This document shows, one piece after another, positions 20,601-64,000 of a DNA stretch of 64,000 bases; within the stretch, counting starts at the first letter, position 1, and every line of letters starts with the position of its first letter. The stretch is taken from assembly GCA_030698625.1 (NCBI GenBank), contig JAUYMS010000024.1, forward strand, positions 482 through 64,481, given 5' to 3'. The notes below the pieces were generated by a model. It did not search any database, was not told the origin of the DNA, and worked only from the letters and a program-made list of their open reading frames with translations. The stretch is from Candidatus Omnitrophota bacterium. GTDB lineage: Bacteria; Omnitrophota; Omnitrophia; Omnitrophales; Aquincolibacteriaceae. Position numbers and translations under genes: made by a program.

Positions 20601-22357
20601 TCTTCCATTCGGCTTTCTATCTTGCGGTCGAGAAGTTGCGTATAGCGGCCTGCCTGTGTGATGCGGCCCTGTTCATAGAGACTCCGAATCACGGAATCAC
20701 GCCAGGCCCTAAGTGTAAGGCCCTGTTTGACGCTGCCCTCCGTAAGTCTATCTACGGTTGCCTCTGTAAATGCCGCCCGCAGGTCAATGCGGCCCTTACG
20801 GACTTTAAAATACTTATTCCAGGACACTTGTCCGCGCATGTAATCTTGATACCGTGTCTGTTCCGGGATTTCGTCAATATCGGGGGTCACCACCGCAAAG
20901 GATATCCCCTCCGCTCGAAAGGACTCGGCAAGTGCCTCGCGGTGAAAACCACCGGTAATAACGACAACAGTCTTATCTGCCTGCTTTGCACTGAGCTTTT
21001 TGATATTCTCGAGGAAGACCTGATCGCGCTTAAATGTCGTTTCATAGAAATGACGAAAAGCGAGGGTAGTCTCCTCGTCAAAGAGCGCCTGAACTTTTGC
21101 TGCCAAGCCTTCAGCGACCCCGTCAAAGGCAATAACATGACGCATCCAATCGTTGAGCGCATCCCATTCGGTCCGCGAAAGCTCCAGACGCTTTAGCTTT
21201 CCGAGAAGAAAGATCTGCCTGTCCAGATTATCGATGCGGCGTTCTTCAGGTCCTTGGACAACGGTGTCCTTGACCTCTGCGACATAGGCATCCCACTGAG
21301 TAAAAAACTCAGGGCCTCGAGTACGACTAAGCAGATTATGATGTCGGGTCAGCTCTTCTAGCCTCTGTGAGATATTTGGCAGCTCGATGTGCTTCGTCTC
21401 TTGGAGTTCGCTTAGCAGATCTGAGAGGACGCTTGCAAATCCGGCTCGGCTGATGGCTTCGGTTCGATAAGCCTGAAGCTTCTGGTGAAAGTCGCGTATC
21501 TGTGAAGTCGCCGTGAGGACCGGTTTTATGGCAGATGCAATCGCCTCAAGTTCCTGATCAAACTCTTTGGCGCTCTTAAACTCCTCGAGCTTAATACTCT
21601 TCGCCAACGAGTGAACTAGCGGATAGGCATGCTCGTCAACGGGATGAATGCCGACCATGTATGCCATCAAGTCACTTAGATAGCCCCGTTCGACCCGCCA
21701 CCGTTTCAAACGCCTGTCGAGCGCCATTGTCTGCGCACTATAATGCCCTTCTTTGAGAGTATTCAGCTCGCCTTCCAGTTGTTCGAGATATTCCTCTAGC
21801 TTTGGCCCCTCATTTAATGAAACCAGGAATGACGCGGTACCCTCTTCATACAAGCTTGGGTCTTCCATCCCGACATACAGCGTGTCGTCATCACCAAGGA
21901 CGCTGGCGGCAATGGCACCGGAGAGTTCTCCACTGCGCATATAATCGCCGAATACCTGCTCCAACTTTTCCCTGTCTGGAAACGCCCGGAATAGGCTTGG
22001 GTCAAATGCCTTGTCGGTACCTTCAAGGGCGACCGCATCGACGGTATATGCATTCAGCAGATAGCGCAATATCTTATAGATTGAACTCTGAGCTTGAGGA
22101 ATGGCGTGTGCGTCCTGAATAAAGATCACCGTCGGGGCCTCTCTGTCCGACTGATAGCGTTCTTCTATATACCCCAGGTCTTCCGGTAATTTAAGCAGGC
22201 TGAGAGAGCCGTCTCTAAGAGACTGGCGAAACGCAGGGACTTGGGTTTGAGCTCCAACCAAAGGCAGGGCCGCATACGCCGCCTGCATGGGGTTAAAAAT
22301 AACCTCAGCGGCGCAAAATGCAATGAGAGTCATCGTTGAGATAATCTTCTTAATCAT
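8699..22357 (-). CDS. Giant multidomain protein B, 4552 aa. Approximate layout: signal peptide or signal anchor (aa 1-35); conserved N-terminal domain with 'IFIQDAH' (aa ~82) and 'ITGGFHRE' (aa ~469), possibly TraB/GumN/Tiki-like; repeat array with HTH-like 'RRWW' motifs (aa ~650-2150); SNF2-family helicase core (aa ~2480-3200); about 1300 aa of C-terminal region of unknown function.
   Basis: An uninterrupted 13.6 kb ORF. SNF2 motifs read from the sequence: motif I GFIGDEPGLGKS (nt ~14800-14830), motif II LIIVDEAHRFKN (nt 14261-14284), motif III LLLSGTLLVNSVGDLYPLLHLLDP, motif VI QVISRIYRRGQ (nt ~12811-12845). The HTH-like repeats and N-terminal hydrophobic segment are described under findings. 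Confidence 0.9.
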   Translation of the reverse strand: MIKKIISTMTLIAFCAAEVIFNPMQAAYAALPLVGAQTQVPAFRQSLRDGSLSLLKLPEDLGYIEERYQSDREAPTVIFIQDAHAIPQAQSSIYKILRYLLNAYTVDAVALEGTDKAFDPSLFRAFPDREKLEQVFGDYMRSGELSGAIAASVLGDDDTLYVGMEDPSLYEEGTASFLVSLNEGPKLEEYLEQLEGELNTLKEGHYSAQTMALDRRLKRWRVERGYLSDLMAYMVGIHPVDEHAYPLVHSLAKSIKLEEFKSAKEFDQELEAIASAIKPVLTATSQIRDFHQKLQAYRTEAISRAGFASVLSDLLSELQETKHIELPNISQRLEELTRHHNLLSRTRGPEFFTQWDAYVAEVKDTVVQGPEERRIDNLDRQIFLLGKLKRLELSRTEWDALNDWMRHVIAFDGVAEGLAAKVQALFDEETTLAFRHFYETTFKRDQVFLENIKKLSAKQADKTVVVITGGFHREALAESFRAEGISFAVVTPDIDEIPEQTRYQDYMRGQVSWNKYFKVRKGRIDLRAAFTEATVDRLTEGSVKQGLTLRAWRDSVIRSLYEQGRITQAGRYTQLLDRKIESRMEDDLITRFTEKWSANLERFIERINILDQQDRLTEAEVARILSSPTNQFAEAVPAGTILAVFRTQSLRPDFLLRYPGFRARSELRGEDVETVNLSRVIKKPGKWFKPYDLGTLDGNKANRHFLKNAFRVADALGIRNVDIVDGFATLDEEITPSTVSFWRTDPAATITFANAAILALVLLESEFAYEPAAAVSRILGTRVASNKGLSLRQLAPIFTGVKNVIDEVAQELVQPLSGIDFDRNEITPELAERFKQHVYSNIYRMTPALKVTHYEINNALNTTSAYYWQNGLDRPGGTHEDPVIAWGFASELAKYVSAEVDPVVAVAKMAGDDTIDANVLSRIWRDFPRDDQMPTPQTRQPAVVKSPAKSRPAPPAADGPVNINRLIERPADEFFRPGSKRILAEDIGDRKVEVNRHFIANTYALVQALEIDNQEIADLVGVHVATVRRWWANPIATITWADAAKLAQRLLRDESGDFTDAQAVARIFGALRLSLIQLKPIFHEANKVINQIIADTVKPVNFKRDPLTPTAAGKLKSNFLDNAFLAARALNMSNAEIHEAVIHIAMGGPAQSGTVGYWENGKPGEKGAKRTIRGPYAAQLAKYITGKKLAVSATATLTGDENLTHAELSEVFAAFPTRSELRTQAEDGDLVKQPTTLQNYFAKRGEVVDLDNLTIEQAKTARNLFLDNAFWMIGNHYSYEEIRQTTGAGSTGTVDYWKKGKKGTVYRSIDLEYARELAKLALTGYPEATSYYRSLAYLFGDTSLSRAQIAAIFRRARERLPKGDVAQVSGIREPARGLFRKGSNRLVKQDADTIKTNQHFLENAGRVADNLEIDDQEIADVVGVHVATVRRWWNNPIATINWEDAAKLARYLLRIEKNYTDAAAVARMIGAPNLSLIQMAPIFDGARDAIKTIVAEQTLDLPYSLFDASNVENGDARRLKLHALQNVFRVTPQLGITNPEINEALDTTTANYWQKGKPGKDGEWEYPSISWAYIAELAQYVSASKQQIRAVATLAGHSSLGRAEFEQVFSDFGERSELRAGVDLNRTIENPKAWLDQYTVASIDKKRANRHFIRNALAVVKALWGEDEVTQASRDIAAETGIAFGKITRWWTYEGNEHVTISWDDAVKLAKYLLEDEAAYDDRAAVARLVGIRRLSVRQLAAVFTDAQKEVDQAVRDKATPLPAAQFNPGNITVASAERFKQRVLGNIYRVTPVLSITHGEINQALRTTSSYYWANGLDRRDGTHEDPVAAWGFVSELAKYVTGEANGVRAVAKIYGDTSIGTAQLREIYASFGEAPEPAPSALARRDEPTDGDIAAERRLREVITPPGRWLYRRGSHRLVREDVDTIRANRHFLANTQAVAREFGLGVEDIARAVGLPVAKARRWWSSNPIATITWEDAAKLAQFLLGTALPRNEVTDAAAVARILGVPNLSLIQMEPIFHEANQALEAAVEAAIKRANFPHGNITPVVAGKLRSNFLDNAFLVARALNLSNSELHEAVIYAALGGPVQSGTVGYWEKGKPGERGVNRRIGGVAAAELAKYVSGKRRLVSGIAKLAGDDALTREQLSRVFRNLPARSELRTQLLDPSQRWLSNLAEAPWQDERIISRDAIRTLLLYLMSQADTDMDGLLRNRSNFKQPILGDQNLESLIAVYEAEVVNRDYVSAAAGPDRIYETAVQLLLHDTGFRQYEGFGAIERQRRLEKTVDETNRDLFRQLTRTINMDEWLDLFETDRAGFWFLLSAANPQMAEDQLMQLLTEKFRQQLNGRKSRKPTSYSRGRIEHLENDFYLFFQNDSTKNILLAQIRERIANDLMAAAADEANGKGGTPAEQAMEIAIEWAEAGRAQWQTEVDAVRREQTASEDGALQLRLAKAEANVTVYTELRRHYNDLKQAKYQSHVNAVKPGTSIKQELELYQHEGIDFGVRTLRGFIGDEPGLGKSVQALGVAQVAKDIMMQQALKTASENQRNQRVLLIAANGVLNNWEEKHIQSWLPNTERLDLSAVDWNSMTEEDWNRERRIADGLQELPEGERPKKDLYVIIDADYSGAYGNSTRMQRLLYAKNRARFVMINYNFLATGQDIQWDGDTRQQKDVLAEELRNWGGADQGPDLIIVDEAHRFKNATNSETKTLISMRSTRPEQRILLLSGTLLVNSVGDLYPLLHLLDPEEYPEQLNGASNLAASQRGFGRRYQGVAGRVALNLDLRRRGIIIRRSREQVLGDNLPERLDTEFVEVSLEQRLTPAGDNLQQAVYEYLDRDLLNTADNQQRVGKITRLQLGSLDLDALGIDPATLEAVLLRLEEALPSLQDQLEINPRVQESIDRIIAEAIRELTHDRQSWGPPNPYGDPSTNPNFPYAFTSPARLDAVATDLINHRSTHPDSKVFAVSNFHAILRRIHELVAQKRGQAEVLRLQRVLAGRSEVSDVSELGIPVASIQRVIQSISKDLVAEDDLVRRVEHKAQPYLESVIGRRIVATKPVSQEQALRDFRAIVMHADYNTATFPKPMARIRRMVQRRLGQEFIATLQKPDHNEPVTGPLRYATIENFNRHTDHDSPDKEILLAMAGSGGEGFDVVGSEEKPTDAIYIVDSPLTDARREQVISRIYRRGQSADEIHIRQYYAPNTWEATRAIPLVGTKRDMLLQALDGFVDDEQLEVSSYQAIQDASRERDKMLRLLANLERIYSVAMRTGDWNTVRDMWDRFAKEYSEKITRLAAYPLGQMFLRYLVELQTTGQIELSKGDTVSFLPSGPATDLLGWYEVRRIMANLSPTGDFKINDLHYNLVDFSQAMLDLAHKNLDNRGVTNVDYINKNLVLDDLEPEVAQLTIGSELWHYGQPIIPPDLTPEQRRILEDIIRRRLRGEHRARVPEALPRAERSLLNMVLDRIPAGITEADIPKLYVGQRNYMLKQLVQHTKKDGYVLLFLHNGDMTEAARTFLEENYGMTVVHNGFGTLNLEGIPARLRKVLTQSSFVLAKRTNVDVDLSPERLSRLPWDGYEIRSGRRHSLTRSGADVIHIHPPTDDGDQGDPTSSLNAWIEDRVTRINRRAVELRSEEVQLLRLKGELKGLISTAHPDIGAVPQITGKIHQMIDLNPEAAYLESVLGEILNVRFGDNPEWDPFANELDVEVIDLLRRTLSDMNNEGRRVIVEEPAATGGQPRGGRPQVLPQPEPVPDDITDDHDLMQLLKNPANFSDGKGYTFVMIQEGMQHFSSDIIVDEDNKTIWVNAHLVQDSGLAPADITTLLQLRLHAHLDALVSEIKGLSDENRLELAFVGLDRLQQRFAGLKESGRYLEIATTLVNQKVYAHLVKFLWELADPKALPLLEGRILNFQHSAGGTRKENRDFLGKYRASRKAIALGGSLDSSVVRRIREYLSEKLGDEIQDEFAADQTRAIELFIGRHGKKFPNRLSAGHIDTEFDEEMDLEGDAEETSITIIHVDEAGERTWLGRLKPGMTPDSVEEPWDLNWEAIETQEDVTSIRFPEWNGAYRRGADKRYGITRLGGRGKGGQTKIWPKIAADGLPAHGLLLIGGREAKGPALIVRKLPGRSLAAVFQVRREIADIVGPTGVADSGHMTPIFDYIIDDENNHPVAIIDISKPSDGLIIPQVTDGNETIEAHTAFAVVEKAGEPGTMLLQIIRNPLDEEAENTLTIAKPAPKAGDQRSELRAIAEVAAGIVSPSPVVIARTSALTVENVANSDTGVAGFADGLRASYRLLIFDHLFVRTAAAQQFSGSTREAYAYAGTVLKEHRFSPQQFNQIAREEFRASLDRLVDAIQRQEVKQLTPIIFYSPEIKEQLLSFVARVYEAVDSQPNLDVKDFQFHIVFSDKEKKQKGDFLSALSKQKAAAQNLVRDSLYWVDGTDSQWVELTKQLDQRVIGNQKFADAYGIFFPHDRWLALSRSVPRQRIVRSNGVPLAFSMSLVPPLAQFLSTTETAEITAQALDKALERYAGSVQYDVSTGITILTTLLQLMAASHREIAASA
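12750..14920 (-). other. SNF2/Swi2-family helicase core (SNF2 N-terminal ATPase domain plus helicase C-terminal domain) embedded in gene B.
   Basis: DEAH-box variant DEAHRFKN, Walker A GLGKS, motif III LLLSGT, arginine-finger motif QVISRIYRRGQ. Confidence 0.8.
15900..20400 (-). repeat. Protein-level tandem repeat array inside gene B. At least five diverged modules of about 250-300 aa (the fifth, 'VADALGIRNVDIVDGF', is degenerate). Each carries 'ANRHF(L/I)xNxxxVAxxLxIxxxEIAxxVGVHVATVRRWWxNPIATIxWxDAAKLA', resembling a transposase/excisionase-type helix-turn-helix, followed by 'YWxxGKPGExG' and 'AELAKYV' submotifs, and ending in 'RSELR' plus acidic residues.
   Basis: Motif copies found at nt ~19265-19315 (EIADLVGVHVATVRRWWANPIATITWADAAKLA), ~18065-18115 (EIADVVGVHVATVRRWWNNPIATINWEDAAKLA), ~17285-17340 (GIAFGKITRWWTYEGNEHVTISWDDAVKLA), ~16455-16510 (IARAVGLPVAKARRWWSSNPIATITWEDAAKLA), and a degenerate copy at ~20160-20260. 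Confidence 0.7.
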
Positions 22358-42566: not shown

Positions 42567-42648
42567 TGCGAGCGAGAGGATTTGAACCTCCATGGCTTGC
42601 GCCGCCAGCCCCTCAAGCTGGTGTGTCTGCCAATTCCACCACGCTCGC
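42567..42648 (-). tRNA. tRNA-Leu (anticodon GAG), type II with a long variable arm; CCA not encoded.
   Basis: Manual fold: acceptor GCGAGCG/CGCTCGC, anticodon stem CCAGC/GCTGG with loop UUGAGGG, T-arm GAGG-UUCAAAU-CCUC, 14-nt variable arm. Confidence 0.85.
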
Positions 42649-43014: not shown

Positions 43015-43053
43015 ATTTGCTGACTCCCGTCAGAAAATTCATATTCATGATTT

Positions 43054-43124
43054 CTGGGGGACCTGGATTCGAACCAAGACAAAGTGAACCAGAATCACTT
43101 GTGCTACCGTTACACTATCCCCCA
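43054..43124 (-). tRNA. tRNA-Gln (anticodon CUG); CCA not encoded.
   Basis: Manual fold: 5' UGGGGGA pairs with 3' UCCCCCA with G73 discriminator; anticodon stem AGUGA/UCACU with loop UUCUGGU; T-loop UUCGAAU. Confidence 0.85.
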
Positions 43125-43194
43125 ACGACTGGATCACAGCTCCAGAATCGAAGGGTGTATTATAGTAGCTCTCTTGAAGGCGTGCAAGGCTGAC

Positions 43195-51854: not shown

Positions 51855-53402
51855 TTAGAATGCTAAAGTTACTTCCGCCGTAAGTATCTTGGCGTTTTCG
51901 TCCGCTGTAGTCACGGATTGTCCGGCGGAAGTCAGGACGCTGGCATCAGTATGAAAGTAGTCGCCCGGCATGAAGATACCTCCGATCATCTTGAATTGAA
52001 GATCTTCGGTATAATCATAAGTCAGGACCATATCCAGTTCGTTACCAATGAATCGACCTCGTCCCTCAATGACGCTCTCATCAAGCCAATACATTAGCCA
52101 CCGACCGAACAGGCCAAGATCAGGGTTATTGAAAGGATGAAAGAGCACATCGACCATAAGCTGGTGCTGGTTGGTGAAGCCGGGAGTAACATCCGGGTCC
52201 GTTAAATAAAACTGGCCCTGAAACTCTCTGATAGCACTGTGGAATTTCCCGCGATAGAGCGGTCGCCATGCGCCCGATTTTCCTCTTTCTGAGATCTCTT
52301 CACCCGAATAGAAAACCCACTCAGCACCGAGGGTCATCGGCCACGGTGACTCAATCCAATCCCACTCCGCCCGCAGGTCATAGGCAAACGCCCTGATGTT
52401 CTGCCGATTATCACCATTCAGGGTAAAGCGCGCCAAAGTAGAAGTTGTCGGAGGTGAGTTTGCCTGTCCGCTGGCGCCACCTTCTTCACCCCATTGAAAC
52501 GCAAATTCGCCATTCAGGCGCATCCTATCCCAGGGCTTGATCCCGCCACGCGTACCGATCGTCCATATCTCCTCGGTCTTCGCAAAAGTGTCGCCTGTGC
52601 CGTTGAGCCTGGCAGCATCTCTATCCCCCAGGAAGTACATTTCCCCTTCTGCGTCATAGGCACTGAAAGCACGGCCGACATTGATACCGAAGGCGTTGTG
52701 ATCATCACCGTTGTTGATACCGAGCTCTGCAATCTTTGCCGCAAAGGCATCAAAATGCCAGTCCCCTTTCTCTACGTAGAATCGGACCGCGTCAAAACTG
52801 TTAAAAAGACTGAACTCGTCCGCGCTGATCGTCCCACTCGGATCGGGATTTCCAAGTTGATTGTCGCCGAGCACAAAGCCATCACCCCAGTGGAGATTCT
52901 GGCGACCGATCGTGACGGAAAGCTCCGGATAATAGAGCTCCTTGATGGTAATATTCGCAAGGTTCAGAATAACATCAAATTGGTCATTTGCTGCGCTTGA
53001 ACCACCAGCCGCACCGGGGCCAATATTTGTAGCGGTCGTTAAGCCGGACCCGTTCGCAGCGCCTGACGGCGGATCCCAGTCGCGCTGATTCAGCAATTCA
53101 ACTTCTCCGGATATATTGCCGGTAAGGTCGGCATCAACGCGAAGACGCATGGTGCTCATGACAAATCGCTGTGTCTCATCCGTGGGGTTAAACTTAGTCC
53201 CGTTGAAGGTGTCATTCCCCTTGATAGCACCAAGGGAATAGCTGTCCTTATAGATGCCGCGGACGTTGATGTCTCCGCTAACCTTCACGTTTTCAACCGC
53301 AGCGAAGGCCGGCACGCCAACTAGTGACAACACGAAGAATACGGCTAAAAATGGCGTTTTACGCATGGCTAAAAGCCTCCCCTGGTGAAATTTCGGTTGC
53401 AC
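51855..53402 (-). CDS. Outer-membrane beta-barrel protein (porin-like) with a signal peptide.
   Basis: Signal peptide MRKTPFLAVFFVLSLVGVPAFA, an alternating amphipathic beta-strand pattern, and an aromatic C-terminal residue (...EVTLAF). Confidence 0.7.
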   Translation of the reverse strand: MQPKFHQGRLLAMRKTPFLAVFFVLSLVGVPAFAAVENVKVSGDINVRGIYKDSYSLGAIKGNDTFNGTKFNPTDETQRFVMSTMRLRVDADLTGNISGEVELLNQRDWDPPSGAANGSGLTTATNIGPGAAGGSSAANDQFDVILNLANITIKELYYPELSVTIGRQNLHWGDGFVLGDNQLGNPDPSGTISADEFSLFNSFDAVRFYVEKGDWHFDAFAAKIAELGINNGDDHNAFGINVGRAFSAYDAEGEMYFLGDRDAARLNGTGDTFAKTEEIWTIGTRGGIKPWDRMRLNGEFAFQWGEEGGASGQANSPPTTSTLARFTLNGDNRQNIRAFAYDLRAEWDWIESPWPMTLGAEWVFYSGEEISERGKSGAWRPLYRGKFHSAIREFQGQFYLTDPDVTPGFTNQHQLMVDVLFHPFNNPDLGLFGRWLMYWLDESVIEGRGRFIGNELDMVLTYDYTEDLQFKMIGGIFMPGDYFHTDASVLTSAGQSVTTADENAKILTAEVTLAF

Positions 53403-53571: not shown

Positions 53572-56500
53572 TTAATTTAACTGTAGGGATTGACGCATTT
53601 TCACAAGTTGCGCCTCTAGTTGACTAGCCTTACTCTCGAGCGCCCTCTCGCGAACCTCTAGGCCTCGGTTTTTTTCAACCATCTCGATACGCTGCTTCTC
53701 TAATTGCTCAAGCCTCACATCCAATTCACGCTGACGGCCCTCTAACTTCCCTTCAAGCTCCTGCAACTTCTGCTCACGGTTCTTGACCTGCTCTTCCTGC
53801 TGCGAAAGCTCACTGCGTGTTTTCTCATACGCTTCCTGATTCTCTTCGTGGTTGCGCAATAAAGCCTCGAGGGCTTGCCGGTCAGACTTGAGTTGGGTCG
53901 TTTGCTTCTTCAGATCCCTTTCTCTCGCCGCGAGCTCCTGCTGTTCTTTCTTCAGAGACCGCCTGGCATCATCCGAATTCTTCCCCTGAAGCTTCTTAAG
54001 CTCAGCCTCCCGTTTTTCAAGCTCTTCTCTCTGCTTCACAATGCGCTTCTCTGCCTCCTCAAGGATAGCCATTTTTGAAGTCACGCCCTCACTGTCAACC
54101 TTAATTTTTTCCTCCTGCTGTTTCAGGTCCGTCTCACGGCGCTGTCTCTCATTTTCCCAATTGCTCACAGCAAGCTCCCGGACCGAGACAGAAGCCTTAC
54201 GCGCCTCCGAGAATTTTTCCTTCTCATCACGGATCGCCTGAGCCTCTCGCTCAAGCTCTTGCGAGCGCCGATCCAGTTCCTTGGCTCGCTCCCCGATTTC
54301 AGCTTTAACCTCATCCAACTGCATCTGGTACTCCGTGACTCGAGGAAGGAAATTCTTGTCAAAGTCTTCGAGCATTTCACTGCGAACACTGAGGTCTGCC
54401 AAAATCTTCTGCTGCTGAGTCTGCCACCTCTCCTGCTCCTCGCGCACTTTTTTGATCTGGCCAAGCAGGGTTGCACGCACAGACAGGACCTTACTCTCAC
54501 GCTCCGAAAGCATACGCTCGCGTCCCGCGACATCTTTTTCCCAATCAGCCTTGATTGTTTCCGCTTCACGACGCAATAGCCCGGCCTTTTCCTCATCCCA
54601 AGCCGCGATCCGCTGGTCCAAAGCAAGCGCATTCTCATCGAACGTCTTTCGGGCCTGCAAGAAATCTGTCTCGCGCTTATCGAGAGCTTCCTTCCCGGCA
54701 TCGCGTTCCTTAAGCCATTCGTTTTTCATTTTCTCAAATGTCTCGCGTTCACTCTCGACAACCTCATCCTGCCGCGAGAGATCACTCAATCTTTCCTGTA
54801 AGACACGTTCCCGCTTGGAAAGTTCTTGAGCCGTTTCTTCGATCTTCTCCGCTCGCCTCTCCAGTTTTGATCTCTCATCTTTCAGATCACTTTCTTCCTT
54901 CCTCAGTTCGTGCAAACGGTTCTCCAACTGCTTAACGCGGCGTTCGTAAGTGGAGGTCTCTTCGTCGCGCTCAAGTTCCCATTCTTTAACACGTTTCTCA
55001 AACGCCGCCTTCTCAGCTGCCACCGAAGACATTTCCTTTTTAGATTTCCCCTGCCACGTCTTCCTTTCGTTTTCGAGTGACCGCCTATCATCTTCCAACC
55101 GTTTCTTCTCTCCCTCGAAGGTCACGCGTTCACTTTCCAAAGCAGTCCTATCGACGTCTATTTTCCCGCGAGCGCTTTCCAGCGATTGCTGGCGTACTTG
55201 GACGGCCTTCTCCTGCTGTTCAATAGTCCTAGCGCGCTGCTCCCAAGCTTCTTTCTGGCTCTTAAACTCCGACTCCCAACTGGCCCGAGCTTCAGTTAAT
55301 TCCCTCCGAGCACTCTCCAGTTCATTCCGAAGCACCTCATCCTGCGCAGTTCCCTCACTACCCGTCGGCGCAGGCGTCTCAGCAATATGCTTATCCACTT
55401 CCGCTTCCCGCTTTTCCAGTCTTTCAACACGCTCATTAAACAGTTTTCTTTTCTGATCAAATTCATCTTCCCACTTCATTTGCCATTCATTAAGGACTTC
55501 GGCTTGAGCCGTAAGCTCATCGGCAACCTTTTTACGATTTTCTTCCCACGCCTCACGCTCTCTTTCAAAGGCTTTCTGCTGCTCTTCCAAAGCTTTAGTC
55601 GATTGGTACAATCCCCGTTCTTCTTTCTCGAGCTCTTCGTGTCTCTGCCGTATTTCGCCTCTTTCCTTATCCATTGCGCTCCTGGCTGCTTCCAATTCCG
55701 TTGCCCGTGTTCGCGCCTGGTCGGTTCTCCCATCAATGTCTGCGGCTCGACCGGCGAAGGCACTTGCTTCTGCGCTATATTTTCTTTCGAGCTCACGCTC
55801 GCGCATATCGAGCTCGCCTTTTTTACGTGTCAGCTCGGTCAGCACCTTCTCGCTTTTGTTTTCCCACTTTTCCCGTCTCTCATCAAATTCGCGGCGCTCT
55901 TTTCGCAACGCCGCTCTCTCAGCGGCAAGATTTCCTACATCCCCAGAAGCGGCCTGTCCTCCGAGGCCGTCTTGGCCCTCCGGCATTAAAACAGAAGACT
56001 TCCTTCGCGCCTCTATGGCCGCTTCCTGCGCTTCCAATTCCTGACGCTGTCGCCCGAGACGTTCCTCGATTCGCTCATACCGCCGCTGCCACTGCTCGCG
56101 TTCAATCACAAACTCTTCACGATCTCGCTCCAGCCTCTTCTCGGACTCGCCAAGCTGACGAGATTGGTGATTATAAGTCTTCTCGCGCTTATCCAGGTCT
56201 GCGATCGCGGCATTGAGCTCCTCATCGCGCTTTTTTAAACGCATTCGCTCTTCGCGAATATCTTCTTCACGCACATCGAAGGCCATTTCCGTTTGCCATA
56301 CCGCAACCTGCTCCTCTTTACCTTCAAACTGTTTGGCCATCTGCAGGCGGCTAGCCTCCGCGCGCTTGCGCTCACGATCAAGCGCTGCTCGCTCCTCATC
56401 AAGGCGTTCTCTCTCTTTTGAAAGATCGCGAGCTTCGCTGCCCAGTTGTTCGGCTCGATCATCTAAACGTTTCTGCAGCGCCTTAAGTTCCTTGCCATCG

Positions 56501-59500
56501 CTGCCGCGCCCGCTCCCTCCACCGCGAATTCGCTTGGCACCCTCTTCAAGATCACGCTCGCGATCATCCAACTCTCGCAGTCTCCGATCAAACTCCATCT
56601 GCTGTTCGCGACTTTCCTTTTCGCGACGCTGCTTTTGGACTTCCCATGCGTCGGCCTTCTTCTTCCACTCCGCATTCAAAGCTTCACGATCTTTTTCCCA
56701 TTGTTTACGGAGCGCCTCAAACGATCCCTGTTCCTTCAATAGGGCGGCACGCATTGACTCAGCCTCGCTAATCTTTTTCTTATAGTGTTCGTCGCTCCCC
56801 TTAAGCTCCGCCCGAATCTTTTCAAGCTCTGCACGATCCTTCTCGATCGACTGACGCAGATCCTCAAGCGTTTTCTTCTCTTCAACGAGTTGTTCAAGTT
56901 TTTGATTAAGCTCCTGTCCCTTTTCCTGAATCGCCTTTTCCCACGCGGCCTGCCGCGCTGCAAACTCGTCTCGCTGGGAAACCAGGTTTTTCTCGGCACT
57001 CTTCAGTCGGGTTATCTGCTCACTAAGATTCCGATTCTCATCTGCAAGAGTCTTCTGCTGCTCTGTCAACTGGCGTTTTAAGCTCTCGGCTTCCAGCCTC
57101 TCCTGCCCAAGATCCTCCTGTGAGGCTCGCAAAGCCGTAAGTTCTTTTTCACGAACTAGCAGCTCCTTCATCTTTTTCTCGATATCGTCACTACGCAAAA
57201 TCAAGTCGACCTCACGCTCTTCAAGCGCCACGGCCTTGGCGTCCAAGTTTTGAACCCTTTCATCAAAACCTTGCTGGCGGACATCGAATTCTTGTTCCCA
57301 ACGTTTAGCCCATTCATTGAAAAGGCGCGCTTCCTCTGCAAGCTTCTCAGCTTCCTTTTGATTGCGCTCGTCCCACTCCGTTCTTTTCTCGGACAGAGTT
57401 TGACTGTCCATCAACATGCTTTCTTTCGATCTCTCCACTTCGCGAATTCGTTCGGTGGACTCTACTTCGCGCCTTTCGATCTCACGCCGTTCCGCTTCAA
57501 GCCGGCGCGCGGTACTTTCAAGAGAAGCCTCACGCTCAACCAAAGCATGCTGCTGAGCTGCCAAATCGTCTTCAAACTGCGCCAGATTCTGGCGCCCACG
57601 CCCCAATTCCAGCTGCCGCGCCTCCTCGCTTGCCTGAACCGCCAAGTCGCGCTGTCTTAATTCATCTTCCCTCTCTGCTAACTCCCGCCATCTTTCCTGG
57701 CGACGAGTCTCCCAAATCGCCTGATCAGATTCGAAAGCCTGCTTATCGGCCATGAGTTCGCGCTTAAGCTGCTCTTCGTCAAAAGTCGCTTTCTTAAACT
57801 GGGCTTTTTCTTGTTCTAATGCCCGCTTACTTTCTTCCAAACGCACCATTTCGTCCTCAAAATCCTGCTCGCGCGCCTCAAGCCTACTCTGCTGGCCCTT
57901 CAATATTTCTGATTTTTCATTAATGAGTCGCATTTCCTCGGCTAACTGACGGGCACTCAGGCCCAATTCATCTTGGGATTTTTTTGTCCGGCTTTCCCAG
58001 TCAGCGTTCTTACGCTCAACGTCTTCAGCCTGACGTTTCAACTCCTGTTCAGCTTGAAGACGCTTAGCCTCCCAGTCATCCTTGCTGACGAGAAAATCGA
58101 TGCGTCTCTGTTCCTGCTTTGCCGCCTCCGCAGACAGACGACTCTTTTCCTCTTCAAGCGACTTCGCGCTCAAAGCCAGTCTTTCACCCTCCAGTTTGAG
58201 CTGATTACTTCTTGTCTCAAGGGAAGATTCCATCTCTTCAAATTTCACGGCTTGAGCTTCGACCTTCGCCCGCTCTTCGTCGAGATGCTTCGCATCCGCC
58301 GCCAGCTGCTGTTCGGCTCTAGATTGCTGTTCTCTCCAAGCTGTCACACTGTTATCAAAAGCCGTTCTTTGAGCGGCCAACTCACGCTCTTCGGAATTAT
58401 GCCGCGCATCAGATGCCGCCTTCTCGCTGCTAAATTCCTCTTGCCGCTGTCTCAGAAGAGCCGAGTCCTTGTCAAAGTTCGCTGCCTCTGCGGCCAATGT
58501 CTCGCGCTTGCGGTCTAAGACTTCGCGCTCCTCACGAAAATTCTCCTGATTTGCAGTGAGTGCCTTTTCACTTACGTGTAAAGCAGACGCACGCTTACTA
58601 ATATCATCCTGCTCGGCTTTGAGGCGCTCGGCTTCCTTCTGCAGCGCATCCTCTTTCGCCTGAATCTCCGCGGCCCAAACCATCTGCCGCTCTTTGAAAT
58701 CTTTTTTCTCGCCCAGGAACTGCATGCTGGCAATACCCTGCTTTGACTCAAACGCTTTTTTCTCGAGTCCGAATTCTCTCTTATCCTCCTCGAACGCCGC
58801 CAGCAATCCTTTTATCCTCATGCGTTCATTCTTAACGCGTGTCTCCTCCGCCTCATTACTTACCCGTTTAGTATCAAGCGCTGCTTCTTTAGAATCTACC
58901 TCTTGTTTCAATATTTCGATTTTTTCACTGCGCGTTTCCAGCGCCTTTAGGCGGTCCCGAAGGTCCTGTTCCCTAATCACCAGAGCCTTCTCAACTTCGT
59001 TCCGGCGGGCATCCCAAGCAGCAATCTGACCTTCCACAAGGCTCTGACGCTCTGCGATTTCCTGCTCGCGGGCAAATCGCTGTTCCTCGTACTTTTTGCG
59101 ATCGGCAGTCAACTTCGCTTCCCGCTCTTCAAGACGCTTGCCTGCGTCAGAAAATTCAGCGCGCTCCTGCAGCAATTGTTTCTTACCTTGCTCCAAGTCC
59201 TGCAGCTTTCCGCCCAGATCGGTACGCTTGGCCTCTAGGGCTTGTTCTCCATCCTGAACGACCATCAGCCTGGTGTCCAAGTCTGCATGACCTTGATCAA
59301 GCTTTCTCTGTCTTTCAGTAATCTCTGACTCCTTTTCCCGCTTCTGTCGAGTCCACTCCGTGAGCGTCTCATTGAGAGCCTGCCGCTGATCACCGATCTC
59401 TTTTTCGAATGCCTTTTGCTTGTCCACAAAGGCCGCCGCTTCCGCACGAAATTCTTTTTCAGCTTCCGCCTGTTGCGCCAGTCGTGCACTTAAATCAGCC

Positions 59501-62500
59501 CGTTCGCCCGACAGCGACTCCGTTTCTTGTTTCAACTTTCGCATGCGTTCCTGCCACTCCGTTTGCAGCTTAGCAGTCTGTTCTTCTCTCGATGAAAGCT
59601 CTGCACGGGTCTTATCTAAAAGACCCTGCCGTTCTGCAATTTCCCCCTGGGTCCGCGTCAACTCATCTTCGGCTATTTTCTGCTTCGCCGTCCACTCCAT
59701 TTGTTCTCGCTCAAAGTCTTCCCTCTGACGCCCGAGACGACTCTCCGTCGATGACTGTTTCTCCGCGAACGCTGCCCGGCGAGCATCAAACTCCTTTTGT
59801 CCCTCGGAGAACTTCTCCTCATCACGCTTCAATTCAGACTTTTGTGCCGACAGGGTAGTTCGATCGTCTTCCAGTTTTTCAGTCGCTTTCCCCAATTCCA
59901 AACGCTCGGCATCTAAAAGCAGCTTCGCATCATTTAATGCTTCACGTTCATCGCGCAATTTTTCACTTCCAAGCTTCATGTCCTGCTCTCTGCTTGCCAG
60001 AGCCGTCTCCCTTTCAACCATTTCAGTCTTCCAGCCGCGGATTTTCGCCTCGACAGCATTACGTTCCGTAGCAAGAGCCTTACGCTCACCCTCTTGGTCG
60101 GTTTCAAATGCGCGACGCCTGGTCTCAAGCTCTTCACTTAAGCGTCTCTGCTCTCCCTGCGAAGCTTCCAACTGCTTGTTCTCTCTCGCCAGCTCAGCCC
60201 GCGCCTTCTCCCATTCGGCCAAGTCACGGCTCAACTCCGTACGCTTTTGTTCCACGCCCTGTTCCGATTCTTCAAGGCTACGAAGTTGTTCTGCGATATC
60301 TGCCGACTTCCGGTCAGCCTTTTCTGCCTCCGCATTGGCGGCACGTGTCTTATCGGATAAAAGCTGTTGTGCGATCGCCTGCTCTGCTTGCCACTCTGAT
60401 TTTGCCGTGCGCAGGGCTTCTCTATCCCGTTTAATCATTTCCCGTTCTGTGGCCTGCTCTGCGGTTAAAGAATTCAAGCGGTCTTTTTCCTTTGTTACGG
60501 CCGCGCGACCCTTCGCAGACTCCTCCGACTCACGTTCTAAAGCAGTCCGCTGCTCAGCCATTTCCTTCTCGGCCTGCTGTAGTTTCTCTAATCGCTTCTT
60601 CGCTTCCGAATCCTGCTGTTGCAATTTCCCCAGTTTGCCACTCAGCAGGGCAGACTCGCTTTCGAGACGGCTTTTCTGAGCCGCGAGTTCTCTCTCCGCA
60701 TGCTCACGGTTCGCCTCCCACGTAGCCACCTGCGAGGTGTGTGCCGTTTGGCGCACCGCAAAATCTCTTTCCTCGGCAGCCAGTTTCTCCCGTTCCGTCT
60801 CCTGCTCGGCAGTCATTAATTCCAAACGTGTCCGTTCCTTTTCGAGCGCTACCGTTTTGGCTTGAGTTTCGGCTAGACTTTTTTCTGCCGCACTCCGTGC
60901 AACCGTCACTTGCCTTTCCGAACCCTCAAGTTGGGCGAACCGGGCATTCATATCCGAGGCCCGGCGGTCCAAGTCATTCGCTCGCGTTTCAAGTGACGCA
61001 GATTTTTCGCCGAGTTGCCGCTCTTCGCGCTCAAGTTTTGCCTGTAAATTTTTCTGTGCTTCATGCCATCGCTCCCGCTCCGACGCAAAAGCGGCTTGTT
61101 CGAATTTAAGGCTCTCCGTCAATTCAATCTGCCTTTCGCCAAAAGTCTGTTTTTCATCCTCGAACGCCTTAGTCATCTCCTCCTGGCGATTCCGCTCGGC
61201 CTGCAACCGGGAGCTGTTCCTTTCCAGATCTTGCTGCGCCTGTTCTAAGGCTTTTCTATTTCGCTCAAACGCCGCACGCTGTGCGGCCAATTCTGCATCA
61301 GTCTTCTGGAGGCTGTCTAAGCGTTCATGGATCATTTGAGTCTGGCGTTCGATTTCTCGCTGCCTTTCTTTAAGCAGAATATCTTGTTTTTCCACGGCAG
61401 TTTTAACATCCGCCAGTTCAATTCTTGCACCCTTAAGCCCGGTCTCTCGCCTCGAAAGCTCTCCGTTGATTTCCCGCTGACGGGCCGCTAATTCCTCCTG
61501 CTCCCGTTTCATCTGAGCCAACTCAGCATATTTATTCTCCAGGATCTTTTCCTGTTCACTAATCGCATTTTGCTCACCATCCAACTGACGCCGCATCTCC
61601 TGAGTATTTTTCTCCGCAAACGCGACAGCCTTCGCGCGCGCATCCAGTTCGGCGGATTGAGCAGCAAGTTCTTGGGAGCGCTCGGAAAAATCAGCCACCT
61701 GCTTTTTCAGCCGTTCCTCTGTGCGGGAAAAGTCAGCAAGCGCGTCTTCCTGTCTGTTCGTCAATGCCGCCTCTTGTGCCGACAAAGCGTTAGTACGCTC
61801 CGCGAAGTCTTTTTCACGTTTTATTCTTGCGGCTTCATCACTCTGCTTAGCCGCAGTCAATTCAGCCTGGAGCCCTTGGACCGTCTGGCGTTCCTTCTCC
61901 AATGTCTGGCGCTCATCGCGCGCCTCAGACAAAGTCTTTTCCAGATTTTCCTTTTCGATCTGAATCCTAGCCTTATCCGACTTCAACTCGTCAAAGTCCT
62001 TTTTGGCCTTCTCAGTCTGCGCCGCCAATTCAGCTGCACGCTTCTGCGTAACGGCGGCTCTCTCATTAAGGCTCTTTACTTTAGCCGCGAGAACGGTTTG
62101 GGCCTTTTTATACGCGGCCTCCCATTTTGTGTTTTTTTCATTGAAGGATTTCTGCAAACCGTCAAAGACCTGCCGATCTTGTTCAAATGCAGCCGCACGT
62201 TCATTCAGCAACGCGACCTGGCTATCCGATTCGGCGCGCTGATCTGTAAGAGTCTTCTCACTCCTAGAAAGCTCGGACTTTTGAAGCTCAAGCGCTTGTT
62301 CCGTCTTAATGATTTCGGCGGTCCGATCTTTGATATCTTTCGAGCGCTCATTTATCTGAAGTTCCTTACTTTCTATCTCGGCCCGGGCTCGCTCTTGGTC
62401 CCCGCGCTCGGCATCAAGCGCCTTACGCTCCTGGACCTGCTTTGCGACGAGGCTGTCGAGCTCTTTGCGCTCACGGGCAAAACTCTCGCTCTTTTCCTTT

Positions 62501-64000
62501 AATTCGGCTGTCCGACGATCCAGGTCTGCGGTCGCCCCCTGATTACGCGTCTCAGCCGCCGCCAAAGTTAATTCCTTCGCAGTCAGCAGCTTTTCTGTCT
62601 TAACGATTTCGGCAGCAAGGCGATTAAGGTCGGTCGCCCGTTTTTCGATCGCATCGCGATCCACATTCAATTCATGGCTGCGCTCACTCAGATTTTTCGC
62701 TTCCTGCTGCAGACGACCGTTCTCACCCTCCAGCCCTGACGCTTTAGCCGACACTTCTCCCTCACGTTGATCCAGTGCTTTTCTCTGATTTCGTAACTTG
62801 CCTGCCTCGGCCACCAGAGACTTTTTACTTATATCGATGCGGCTGCGCTCCTGCTCCAAGGCAAGAATACTCTGAGACAAATCTTCCTCACGCTTCTTGA
62901 TGCGTTCCAGGCGGACTTCCGTTTTCTTCTCCTGCACATCGACTTGCCGCAATCGCGTCTCTGTTTCTTTGAGACGCTTCGTCACATCAGACTCCCGCTC
63001 TGCCACTGCCTGCTCGCGACCCTCAATCTCAGTGCGCCATTCAGTCTGTTTCACCTCAAACGCCTCTTGCTGAGATCCAAATCGCTCCACGGCACTCTCA
63101 AGGCTGTTTCTGTGCCCATCCAATTCTTTTTGTCGCCCCTCGACACTCTTCTGTTCAGCTGCAAGCGCCTCGCGTATTTCCTGAGTCTGGGTTTGCCATT
63201 CCGCTCGCTCTTGCTCGAACTTTTTGGTGGCATCTTCAAAAACTTCACCGAGCCACACTTGCTCAGTTAGCCGAAGCTCAAGCTTATTCCGCGCTTCGTC
63301 TAAAGCGGTCGTGTCTGCAACTAAGCGAGCTTCCCGGGCTGCAACGTCTTTCTTACTGGCCTCAAAGGCTGCTAACTTCTGAGCCGTTTCCGCCTCTCTT
63401 GCGACAACTTCATCAAGTCTTGCCTGCACACTTTCCGATTTCCTGACTAAACCCTGTTGCTGATCCGCGAAGGCTTTCTGCTCCGCGGCGAGATTAGTCA
63501 CAGCCGACTCCACAGCGGCCCTTTCCTTATTGAGGGCTGCCGCACGGCTCTCAAAATCCTTCAATCCCTCCGTTAGCGCACCCTGCCGTTCTTTCAGGTC
63601 CTTTTCACCTTGAGCGAGCTTAGCCGCTCGGCTTTCGAGCGCTCCGGTCTGCTGTTGTAAGTCTCGGGCAAGTTTTTCGAACTCTGACTTAGTTTTCTTT
63701 CGCTCGGATTCCCGGGCCGCAGCGCGCTTCTCCAGCGCACCCTCGGCTTCGGCAAACTCTTGCCCACGCTGTTTACGCTCCTCATTAAACTGCGCCCACA
63801 AGGCTTCGAGATCGCTGCGCTCTCTGGCCTCCGCCTGCAACAACTGGTCCACTTTAGCGCGTTTGACATCAATCGATTGGGCGCGTTCGGTCAATTGCTT
63901 CGTCACACCTTCCAACTCTCCGCGCAGAGCCTCAAACCGAGTCTCACCATCAAGCAATGCGGCACCCTTCTCATCAAGTGCCCCGGCACGCTCTTTTAAT
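53572..64000 (-). CDS. Giant coiled-coil protein, more than 3461 aa. The 5' end lies beyond the window: the frame stays open past 63957 to the window edge. Uniformly E/K/R/Q/A/L-rich heptad-like sequence with no recognisable globular domain in the visible part.
   Basis: A 10.4 kb uninterrupted ORF ending at the TAA at 53572. The track's 'start' at 63957 is an internal TTG. I translated codons upstream of it to the window end (…LKERAGALDEKGAA-LDGET…) and found no stop. Confidence 0.85.
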   Translation of the reverse strand, partial: LKERAGALDEKGAALLDGETRFEALRGELEGVTKQLTERAQSIDVKRAKVDQLLQAEARERSDLEALWAQFNEERKQRGQEFAEAEGALEKRAAARESERKKTKSEFEKLARDLQQQTGALESRAAKLAQGEKDLKERQGALTEGLKDFESRAAALNKERAAVESAVTNLAAEQKAFADQQQGLVRKSESVQARLDEVVAREAETAQKLAAFEASKKDVAAREARLVADTTALDEARNKLELRLTEQVWLGEVFEDATKKFEQERAEWQTQTQEIREALAAEQKSVEGRQKELDGHRNSLESAVERFGSQQEAFEVKQTEWRTEIEGREQAVAERESDVTKRLKETETRLRQVDVQEKKTEVRLERIKKREEDLSQSILALEQERSRIDISKKSLVAEAGKLRNQRKALDQREGEVSAKASGLEGENGRLQQEAKNLSERSHELNVDRDAIEKRATDLNRLAAEIVKTEKLLTAKELTLAAAETRNQGATADLDRRTAELKEKSESFARERKELDSLVAKQVQERKALDAERGDQERARAEIESKELQINERSKDIKDRTAEIIKTEQALELQKSELSRSEKTLTDQRAESDSQVALLNERAAAFEQDRQVFDGLQKSFNEKNTKWEAAYKKAQTVLAAKVKSLNERAAVTQKRAAELAAQTEKAKKDFDELKSDKARIQIEKENLEKTLSEARDERQTLEKERQTVQGLQAELTAAKQSDEAARIKREKDFAERTNALSAQEAALTNRQEDALADFSRTEERLKKQVADFSERSQELAAQSAELDARAKAVAFAEKNTQEMRRQLDGEQNAISEQEKILENKYAELAQMKREQEELAARQREINGELSRRETGLKGARIELADVKTAVEKQDILLKERQREIERQTQMIHERLDSLQKTDAELAAQRAAFERNRKALEQAQQDLERNSSRLQAERNRQEEMTKAFEDEKQTFGERQIELTESLKFEQAAFASERERWHEAQKNLQAKLEREERQLGEKSASLETRANDLDRRASDMNARFAQLEGSERQVTVARSAAEKSLAETQAKTVALEKERTRLELMTAEQETEREKLAAEERDFAVRQTAHTSQVATWEANREHAERELAAQKSRLESESALLSGKLGKLQQQDSEAKKRLEKLQQAEKEMAEQRTALERESEESAKGRAAVTKEKDRLNSLTAEQATEREMIKRDREALRTAKSEWQAEQAIAQQLLSDKTRAANAEAEKADRKSADIAEQLRSLEESEQGVEQKRTELSRDLAEWEKARAELARENKQLEASQGEQRRLSEELETRRRAFETDQEGERKALATERNAVEAKIRGWKTEMVERETALASREQDMKLGSEKLRDEREALNDAKLLLDAERLELGKATEKLEDDRTTLSAQKSELKRDEEKFSEGQKEFDARRAAFAEKQSSTESRLGRQREDFEREQMEWTAKQKIAEDELTRTQGEIAERQGLLDKTRAELSSREEQTAKLQTEWQERMRKLKQETESLSGERADLSARLAQQAEAEKEFRAEAAAFVDKQKAFEKEIGDQRQALNETLTEWTRQKREKESEITERQRKLDQGHADLDTRLMVVQDGEQALEAKRTDLGGKLQDLEQGKKQLLQERAEFSDAGKRLEEREAKLTADRKKYEEQRFAREQEIAERQSLVEGQIAAWDARRNEVEKALVIREQDLRDRLKALETRSEKIEILKQEVDSKEAALDTKRVSNEAEETRVKNERMRIKGLLAAFEEDKREFGLEKKAFESKQGIASMQFLGEKKDFKERQMVWAAEIQAKEDALQKEAERLKAEQDDISKRASALHVSEKALTANQENFREEREVLDRKRETLAAEAANFDKDSALLRQRQEEFSSEKAASDARHNSEERELAAQRTAFDNSVTAWREQQSRAEQQLAADAKHLDEERAKVEAQAVKFEEMESSLETRSNQLKLEGERLALSAKSLEEEKSRLSAEAAKQEQRRIDFLVSKDDWEAKRLQAEQELKRQAEDVERKNADWESRTKKSQDELGLSARQLAEEMRLINEKSEILKGQQSRLEAREQDFEDEMVRLEESKRALEQEKAQFKKATFDEEQLKRELMADKQAFESDQAIWETRRQERWRELAEREDELRQRDLAVQASEEARQLELGRGRQNLAQFEDDLAAQQHALVEREASLESTARRLEAERREIERREVESTERIREVERSKESMLMDSQTLSEKRTEWDERNQKEAEKLAEEARLFNEWAKRWEQEFDVRQQGFDERVQNLDAKAVALEEREVDLILRSDDIEKKMKELLVREKELTALRASQEDLGQERLEAESLKRQLTEQQKTLADENRNLSEQITRLKSAEKNLVSQRDEFAARQAAWEKAIQEKGQELNQKLEQLVEEKKTLEDLRQSIEKDRAELEKIRAELKGSDEHYKKKISEAESMRAALLKEQGSFEALRKQWEKDREALNAEWKKKADAWEVQKQRREKESREQQMEFDRRLRELDDRERDLEEGAKRIRGGGSGRGSDGKELKALQKRLDDRAEQLGSEARDLSKERERLDEERAALDRERKRAEASRLQMAKQFEGKEEQVAVWQTEMAFDVREEDIREERMRLKKRDEELNAAIADLDKREKTYNHQSRQLGESEKRLERDREEFVIEREQWQRRYERIEERLGRQRQELEAQEAAIEARRKSSVLMPEGQDGLGGQAASGDVGNLAAERAALRKERREFDERREKWENKSEKVLTELTRKKGELDMRERELERKYSAEASAFAGRAADIDGRTDQARTRATELEAARSAMDKERGEIRQRHEELEKEERGLYQSTKALEEQQKAFEREREAWEENRKKVADELTAQAEVLNEWQMKWEDEFDQKRKLFNERVERLEKREAEVDKHIAETPAPTGSEGTAQDEVLRNELESARRELTEARASWESEFKSQKEAWEQRARTIEQQEKAVQVRQQSLESARGKIDVDRTALESERVTFEGEKKRLEDDRRSLENERKTWQGKSKKEMSSVAAEKAAFEKRVKEWELERDEETSTYERRVKQLENRLHELRKEESDLKDERSKLERRAEKIEETAQELSKRERVLQERLSDLSRQDEVVESERETFEKMKNEWLKERDAGKEALDKRETDFLQARKTFDENALALDQRIAAWDEEKAGLLRREAETIKADWEKDVAGRERMLSERESKVLSVRATLLGQIKKVREEQERWQTQQQKILADLSVRSEMLEDFDKNFLPRVTEYQMQLDEVKAEIGERAKELDRRSQELEREAQAIRDEKEKFSEARKASVSVRELAVSNWENERQRRETDLKQQEEKIKVDSEGVTSKMAILEEAEKRIVKQREELEKREAELKKLQGKNSDDARRSLKKEQQELAARERDLKKQTTQLKSDRQALEALLRNHEENQEAYEKTRSELSQQEEQVKNREQKLQELEGKLEGRQRELDVRLEQLEKQRIEMVEKNRGLEVRERALESKASQLEAQLVKMRQSLQLN

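Follow-up and report, generated by a model that had tools for sequence, protein, structure and literature searches.

A giant heptad-repeat protein with one hydrophobic position per heptad and no detectable relatives in a Candidatus Omnitrophota bacterium

What kind of protein does a bacterial gene encode when its product is heptad-periodic over more than 3,400 residues and database searches bring up no relative of it? This question is raised by a window of 64,000 nt (the whole stretch of DNA analysed here, in whose coordinates all positions are given) from contig JAUYMS010000024.1 of the Candidatus Omnitrophota assembly GCA_030698625.1. Between positions 53572 and 63999 its minus strand holds 3,475 stop-free codons, followed by a TAA at 53572-53574, in a frame that is still open at the window end. 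A first-pass annotation of the window had described the product, hereafter the giant protein, as one monotonous, continuous coiled coil of the SMC or myosin type. In our analysis it is more aptly called a fibrous heptad-repeat protein that combines a 'd-only' core, a surface chemistry similar to that of single alpha-helix (SAH) domains, extreme length and a lack of detectable relatives. The features of the gene and its product, with residues numbered from the window end, are:

53572..63999, minus strand: giant gene, C-terminal 3,475 codons and stop (53572-53574), based on translation, composition, an identical independent assembly and native codon usage
56524..63999, minus strand: uninterrupted proline-free heptad-repeat helical rod, residues 1-2492, about 370 nm, based on the first proline at residue 2673, a 7-residue register chain with +4 stutters and AlphaFold2 (AF2) on residues 1263-1714
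57247..60213, minus strand: best-preserved 113-residue super-repeats, residues 1263-2251, based on Trp spacing, autocorrelation, a repeat hidden Markov model (HMM) and unit alignment
56491..56523, minus strand: linker 1, residues 2493-2503, GGGSGRGSDGK, non-helical, based on a Gly/Pro density scan and an AF2 confidence (pLDDT) below 50 at 2494-2500
55999..56490, minus strand: helical segment of about 164 residues, 2504-2667, with a weak break at 2563-2577, predicted by AF2
55930..55998, minus strand: linker 2, residues 2668-2690, SSVLMPEGQDGLGGQAASGDVGN, non-helical, based on composition, Gly/Pro density scan and AF2
55381..55929, minus strand: helical segment of about 183 residues, 2691-2873, with a weak break at 2752-2761, predicted by AF2
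55345..55380, minus strand: linker 3, residues 2874-2885, ETPAPTGSEGTA, non-helical, based on composition, Gly/Pro density scan and AF2
53575..55344, minus strand: C-terminal helical rod of about 590 residues (about 87 nm), 2886-3475, ending in ...LEAQLVKMRQSLQLN, based on translation and on domain and motif scans

The frame belongs to a real gene that is native to its host. In DNA of 52% GC, 3,475 stop-free codons cannot have arisen by chance, and the synonymous codon fractions agree with those of seven housekeeping genes in the window (r=0.93; GC at third codon positions of 0.548 compared to 0.571). The Logan assembly of run SRR13727534 contains a 19.7-kb contig that is 100% identical to the window across 16,201 bases, 8.7 kb of which lie in the giant gene; this contig ends inside the gene, which truncates its called product to 2,918 residues. 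Tandem Repeats Finder and a direct-repeat search, a check for internal DNA repeats that had been proposed beforehand, detected no long direct or tandem repeats and only short chance matches, which excludes a collapsed or mis-assembled DNA repeat. Thus, the mis-assembled low-complexity repeat that the first-pass annotation had named as a danger is contradicted by the identical Logan contig and the absence of DNA repeats. The broader view that the region is an assembly artefact or non-coding low-complexity DNA found no support in our data and is effectively refuted, as it would also have to account for a 10.4-kb stop-free frame, native codon usage and a position-specific residue pattern over 488 heptads; we give it next to no weight. 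The claim of a single giant open reading frame (ORF) of more than 3,461 amino acids therefore holds. The figure of 3,461 in the ORF listing results from counting from the first TTG at 63957. Residues ahead of this codon (63957-63999) share the repeat character of the remaining protein, and the frame continues up to the edge of the window, which places the N-terminus beyond it. On the plus strand, the ORFs of this region mirror the coding strand and are rich in L/F/S/R, in agreement with their earlier dismissal as antisense artefacts.

Six residue types make up 68.5% of the giant protein (E 17.9, A 12.1, R 11.4, L 9.9, K 9.2 and Q 8.1%), while proline (four residues), cysteine (none) and glycine (3%) are scarce. 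Since the highest 19-residue Kyte-Doolittle mean is just 0.46, no transmembrane (TM) segment is present in the 3,475 residues seen, which is also the scope of the following scans. Pfam, PADLOC and PHROGs returned no matches, a motif scan detected no Walker A, Walker B, signature, RTX, LPXTG or CxxC motifs, and neither an adhesin domain nor a signal sequence was found. These results bear out the earlier statement that neither a globular domain nor a TM segment or a signal peptide is visible in the window.

The periodicity of the protein is strong and ordered at two levels. Fourier analysis of its hydrophobic residues gives maxima at periods of 3.52-3.53 and 7.06 residues, autocorrelation of self-similarity peaks at lags of 7, 14, 21 and 113 residues, and the heptad signal lies above the 95th percentile of shuffled sequences in 44% of all 28-residue windows. 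A register determined by dynamic programming over the whole protein places 488 core positions, 91-92% of which are hydrophobic (L/F/I/V/W/M). Of the 487 steps between them, 430 span 7 residues, 26 span 11, 22 span 4 and 3 span 3; the register thus contains about 50 discontinuities, nearly all of the +4 stutter type. Above the heptads, an [F/L]x6W motif recurs at an exact spacing of 113 residues, with core tryptophans 113 apart at W1323, 1436, 1549, 1662, 1775 and 1888 and again at W2096 and 2209. When the remainder of the protein was scored with an HMM of eight units, it reached 109.7 bits; among 30 shuffles in 21-residue blocks the top score was 19 bits, and heptad-block and full shuffles were negative. 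Iterated searching extended the repeat to 24 units over 69% of the protein, many with start-to-start distances of exactly 113. Conserved hydrophobic columns in the unit alignment are spaced 7,7,7,7,11,7,7,11,7,7,7,7,7, so that one unit consists of 13 heptads and two hendecads, or 113 residues in 32 turns, and the ratio 113/32 = 3.531 matches the Fourier peak. Aromatic F/W core residues adjoin the hendecads, and the 113-residue period is carried by aromatic residues only. The protein is built of about 30 diverged copies of this unit, which share 12-25% pairwise identity. Hence the sequence is not monotonous, as had been stated, but carries an ordered super-repeat. Secondary tryptophan spacings of 25 and of 60 (or 53) residues also occur within units (1976/2001, 2209/2234, 2818/2843, 2982/3007 and 1203/1263/1323) and could be traces of a half-unit of about 56 residues (60+53) that is older than the super-repeat and underlies it.

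The heptads differ from those of a canonical coiled coil in that only one position is hydrophobic. The 'a' position, four residues after the conserved core residue, is 13% LIVMFWY, 10% Ala and 51% charged (R22, E18, Q12, A10, K8), and it is likewise polar in the unit alignment. An alignment-free measure gave the same picture: LIVMFWY co-occurrence in the giant protein is 0.69 at lag 3, 0.87 at lag 4 and 2.61 at lag 7, compared to 0.93-1.28, 1.05-1.34 and 1.2-1.9 in the control sequences (E. coli MukB arms, SbcC arms and the tropomyosin TPM1). The 3.5-residue hydrophobic periodicity of a canonical a/d coiled coil is therefore present, whereas its paired apolar 'a' and 'd' positions are not, and the comparison with SMC- or myosin-type coiled coils does not stand in this respect. 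The polar faces follow a different rule. Opposite charges are paired at i+4 at 0.134 per residue, compared to 0.096 +/- 0.004 in shuffles, and like charges at 0.053 compared to 0.097. Opposite-charge pairs at i/i+3 are statistically enriched as well, and none of the three controls (MukB, SbcC and tropomyosin) showed a significant effect. The giant protein thus has the E-K/R pairs at i+3 and i/i+4 that are typical of SAH domains, together with a hydrophobic seam that those lack. Its charged fraction is 44%. If two chains were paired in parallel and in register, 49% of the 'a' layers would bring like charges face to face, which corresponds to z = -9 when compared to other offsets. The g-e' pairs of such a dimer would be attractive in 66 and repulsive in 56 cases, compared to permutation means of 67 and 60, which is complementarity at chance level.

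AF2 predictions agree with an almost purely helical protein. Residues 1263-1714 were modelled as 96% helix in three helices of 149, 161 and 126 residues (pLDDT 79.5), and residues 2400-2960 as 89% helix in six helices (pLDDT 75.6). Both models were run as monomers from the single sequence, and with predicted template modelling (pTM) scores of 0.23-0.28 they carry no information on the mutual packing of the helices. Composition, periodicity and predicted helix content together support the almost purely alpha-helical, heptad-periodic giant that had been proposed. Its continuity needs to be corrected, as three flexible Gly/Ser/Pro linkers (2493-2503, 2668-2690 and 2874-2885) interrupt the helix. 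These linkers coincide with the low-pLDDT breaks of the AF2 model, and all four prolines and the glycine clusters are confined to the C-terminal quarter of the protein. At the textbook coiled-coil rise of 0.1485 nm per residue, the rod segments of about 2,492, 164, 183 and 590 residues correspond to about 370, 24, 27 and 87 nm, or about 516 nm in total.

Searches for relatives were made against libraries that do not contain the giant protein itself. A word-indexed search of 5.8 billion clusters found no homologue of the whole protein at E<=1e-10, no match to a profile of the 24 repeat units at E<=1e-3 and no match to the C-terminal 1,012 amino acids. Exhaustive phmmer searching with residues 1263-2462 against 1.84 billion representatives gave 0 matches, viral contigs held no relatives, and the N-terminal 400 amino acids found nothing in GTDB genome contigs or JGI metagenomes. 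The sole other record of the gene is the Logan contig mentioned above. As a phmmer control, the protein's own N- and C-terminal thirds scored 9-13 bits against its middle after a composition correction of about 235 bits, and in a simulation an ungapped orthologue sharing 32% identity or more would reach E<=1e-49 in a database of this size. By this calibration, relatives of about 30% identity or more are excluded, and the exclusion does not reach a family as diverged as the internal repeats; given this sensitivity, the term orphan denotes here the lack of a relative closer than about 30% identity. The search for a homologue in related genomes, another check proposed beforehand, likewise found none, and the nearest Omnitrophota genomes lack the gene at the syntenic site. 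A sequence search of PDB returned nothing, and Foldseek of the AF2 model against PDB returned noise only. Among NCBIfam models, sub-threshold matches were obtained to SMC_prok_B (TIGR02168; 87 bits, cut-off 567) and SMC_prok_A (45 bits, cut-off 729), and the best listed SMC stretches cover coiled-arm model positions only (749-964 and 672-925).

Together, these data lead us to a preferred reading, to which we assign a probability of roughly 55%: the window would encode the C-terminal part, at least 3,475 residues, of a native sequence-orphan fibrous protein that acts as a stiff pairing helix and serves as a tether, scaffold or ruler. Each chain would form a stiff helix stabilised by its own salt bridges, and the narrow leucine stripe would pair it with a second helix that is antiparallel, staggered or a different partner, as parallel self-pairing in register seems unlikely. 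The stripe has survived in about 30 repeats whose identity has otherwise fallen to about 20%, and is therefore most likely an interface. The resulting structure would be a thin rod, uninterrupted for at least 0.37 µm and about 0.5 µm long in total, and thus longer than the roughly 0.2 µm cells typical of the phylum. Its role would be mechanical, as a long tether, a scaffold or a ruler with a 16.8-nm repeat. This repeat could offer periodic aromatic sites, and the three linkers in the C-terminal quarter could act as flexible hinges. Several points weigh against this view. No parallel stagger is singled out by charge complementarity (best z = 2.3), nor is any antiparallel offset (z = 3.05 among about 580 tested). 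Long-range charge periodicity, including that of the 28-residue type, is absent, so there is no sign of ordered lateral assembly. The low pTM of the AF2 monomers leaves helix packing unconstrained. Conservation, co-evolution and conserved neighbourhood cannot be used as evidence because no homologues were found. Finally, a signal peptide, an anchor or an enzymatic head could be present at the N-terminus beyond the window, so that the protein may be cytoplasmic, envelope-bound or extracellular.

Compared to known systems, the rod is far outside the usual bacterial range. Coiled-coil domains of more than 400 amino acids were not found in the bacterial genomes analysed by Rose et al. 2005 (PMC1322226), where the longest prokaryotic coiled coils are those of SMC, MukB, SbcC and Rad50; the earlier remark that such proteins are rare in bacteria is in line with that survey. 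The giant protein is weakly similar in composition to models of these arms. It differs from SMC, MukB and SbcC in having neither ATPase head nor hinge, from the arm controls, in which 'a' and 'd' are both hydrophobic, in its core, and from SMC-type arms of about 300-400 residues in its length of more than 3,400. An SMC/Rad50/MukB-type ATPase with hugely extended arms is nonetheless the reading to which the two NCBIfam matches would point. Their scores are far under the cut-offs and confined to arm positions, and no Pfam SMC domain was detected. There is no Walker A motif in the residues seen, no ABC-ATPase half-head with signature or Walker B at the C-terminus, where the protein is coiled to its last residue, and no globular insert or CxxC (0 Cys) that could represent an SMC hinge or zinc hook. 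The C-terminus effectively refutes this reading, which we regard as highly improbable; only a split gene with a separate head protein could rescue it. With the myosin II rod, tropomyosin, crescentin, FilP and Scy the giant protein shares a proline-poor helical rod of heptads, stutter-type discontinuities, a higher-order repeat and probably a mechanical or structural role. It departs from them in its single hydrophobic core position per heptad, its polar 'a', its ER/K-like salt-bridge surface, its 113-residue unit and its run of at least 2,492 uninterrupted residues, and there is no sequence similarity. Myosin shows 28- and 196-residue patterns, and FilP and Scy reportedly have hendecad-based repeats of 51 residues (Walshaw et al. 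2010); the repeat of the giant protein is 113 residues long, and neither a 51-residue repeat nor similarity to crescentin, FilP or Scy was found. A canonical parallel two-stranded filament like the myosin rod, intermediate filaments or crescentin, in which homodimers in register would assemble laterally into a cytoskeletal structure, comes closest to the view of the first-pass annotation. The strong heptad periodicity with stutters, the near absence of proline and glycine and the weak match to the arm model TIGR02168 are consistent with it. The second core position is, however, only 13% hydrophobic and 51% charged, hydrophobic residues occur together at lags 3 and 4 less often than they do in MukB, SbcC and tropomyosin, a dimer in register would stack like charges at about half of its 'a' layers with g-e' pairing no better than chance, and the charge periodicity over long range that myosin or intermediate filaments would lead one to expect is missing. 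We therefore consider such a filament unlikely.

The opposite extreme, a monomeric ER/K-type SAH of exceptional length that would act as an entropic spring or spacer without pairing, seems to us no easier to accept. SAH domains are often mistaken for coiled coils, and those of myosin VI, myosin X and caldesmon show the same excess of opposite-charge pairs at i/i+3 and i/i+4 and the same depletion of like-charge pairs as the giant protein, to which its polar 'a' position and the very long unbroken helices predicted by AF2 can be added. SAH domains are, however, tens to a few hundred residues long and have no hydrophobic seam, whereas the giant protein retains a Leu/Phe/Trp stripe in 92% of its heptads along more than 3,400 residues. 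The persistence of hydrophobic residues at 92% of 488 positions in repeats that are only 12-25% identical argues for selection on an interface, and the charged fraction of classical SAH domains is well above the value found here. Three further candidates were examined and rejected. Spectrin repeats resemble the giant protein in their tandem units of about 106-113 residues, heptad patterning and conserved core Trp; there is no Pfam match at E<=0.01, and the AF2 helices of 126-161 residues differ from the roughly 30-residue helices of three-helix bundles (about 106 amino acids), for whose core we infer that one hydrophobic residue per heptad would be too few. A phage tape-measure protein is not supported by PHROGs (0 matches), viral contigs (no relatives) or the housekeeping neighbours, and a defence-system component is not supported by PADLOC (0 matches). 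A different kind of alternative concerns location and is compatible with our preferred structural model of a stiff pairing helix: the protein may be a secreted or surface-anchored fibril that reaches or attaches to host or prey cells and whose N-terminal signal peptide or anchor lies outside the window. A TM segment or signal peptide was reported for 94% of 916 long Omnitrophota proteins (preprint 10.64898/2026.06.07.730766), and giant ORFs of the phylum were tied to adhesion or predation (10.1101/2023.11.21.568195; PMC10066038). The absence of cysteine, an extended length above the cell size and an outer-membrane beta-barrel gene directly downstream fit as well, and it is the phylum-wide prior and this adjacent gene that keep the reading alive. 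In contrast, the residues seen contain no signal, TM, RTX, LPXTG or adhesin feature, the modules of the described Omnitrophota giants are missing and the neighbouring genes are housekeeping genes, so that a surface location can only be put forward tentatively. Somewhat more speculative is the idea that the protein represents an undescribed prokaryotic fibrous class, a hybrid of ER/K SAH and leucine zipper in which the heptad is of the 'd-only' kind and stutters occur twice per 113 residues. It would form a rod or tether of at least 0.5 µm, over two times as long as the roughly 0.2 µm Omnitrophota cell producing it is wide. Such a protein might encircle the cell as a hoop, act as a 16.8-nm ruler or run outside the cell as a line to a host or to prey.

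The host belongs to a phylum in which very large genes are not unusual. Dxs encoded in the window is 65-67% identical to that of several Candidatus Omnitrophota metagenome-assembled genomes (MAGs) and at most 50% identical to that of other phyla. No other bacterial phylum is as well known for giant genes as the Omnitrophota (10.1101/2023.11.21.568195; 10.64898/2026.06.07.730766), most of which are ultra-small cells of about 0.2 µm (PMC10066038). The described giants of the phylum, of the Archaeovorin and dockerin types (West-Roberts et al. 2023; Seymour et al. 2023; 2026 preprint), resemble the giant protein in size, poor conservation, few annotated domains and diverged protein repeats without tandem repeats at the nucleotide level. 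They differ by carrying many TM helices and SecA-DEAD, dockerin, TSP3 and beta-helix modules, all absent from the 3,475 residues seen here, and the word 'coiled' does not occur in the papers on Omnitrophota giant genes considered here (PMC10066038, 10.1101/2023.11.21.568195 and 10.64898/2026.06.07.730766). The expectation of a host enriched in giant genes is met by this lineage and by two more giant ORFs in the window. The remaining features are:

51855..53366, minus strand: Alginate_exp-family outer-membrane beta-barrel gene, 503 amino acids, signal-peptide-like start MRKTPFLAVFFV... (Pfam PF13372, E=1e-12)
8699-22357, minus strand: giant ORF of 4,552 amino acids with an SNF2-related helicase domain at residues 2494-2803 (Pfam)
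2-8608, minus strand: third giant ORF, at least 2,869 amino acids, running off the window start and beginning with MKSKRIKPFLRVIAVAVNLCFTVTSVAWAA (signal-peptide or TM-like), no Pfam match

The barrel gene starts with an ATG at 53366 on the same strand, 205 bp downstream of the giant gene. The gap between the two is AT-rich and contains a promoter-like site and no terminator. Genes for 5-FTHF cyclo-ligase, xseA, xseB, ispA, dxs, NAD kinase and gltX follow past the barrel gene on the same strand. For the barrel gene, a porin, neither an exact look-up nor a metagenome query returned anything, and we would regard it as genomic context of the giant gene only. In the closest Omnitrophota genomes (those with 65-67% Dxs identity) both the giant gene and the porin are absent upstream of xseA-ispA-dxs. 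The pair may thus be a lineage-specific insertion or rearrangement. The 4,552-amino-acid ORF shows several weak helix-turn-helix or sigma-70 region-4-like matches around residues 1007-1452 and is a putative giant DNA-remodelling or regulatory protein. Directly downstream of it, in tandem on the same strand, lies the third giant ORF, which is rich in L/A/E/R/D/V. All sizeable genes in the roughly 40 kb from 23489 to 64000 are on the minus strand, where the GC skew of the plus strand is persistently negative, and two tRNA genes, tRNA-Leu(GAG) at 42567-42648 and tRNA-Gln(CTG) at 43053-43125, are also on the minus strand.

Fibrous and long coiled-coil proteins of bacteria are regarded as rare and short, and the arms of SMC-type proteins (about 300-400 residues) as the longest. 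The helical rod described here exceeds these arms in length at least tenfold, and the cells that encode it are among the smallest known. Its combination of a single leucine in each heptad with a salt-bridged surface and regularly placed stutters lies outside the textbook classes of both coiled coils and SAH domains, and would make the giant protein a test case for how small a hydrophobic core can sustain very long helical pairing. It is of a type that the Omnitrophota giant-gene papers considered here do not describe, as it is purely helical and shows neither a TM segment nor a known domain in the residues seen. If expressed and extended, it would surpass the cell itself in size as a mechanical or geometric element, and would bear on the envelope organisation or the partner reach of these ultra-small, possibly predatory or epibiotic Omnitrophota.

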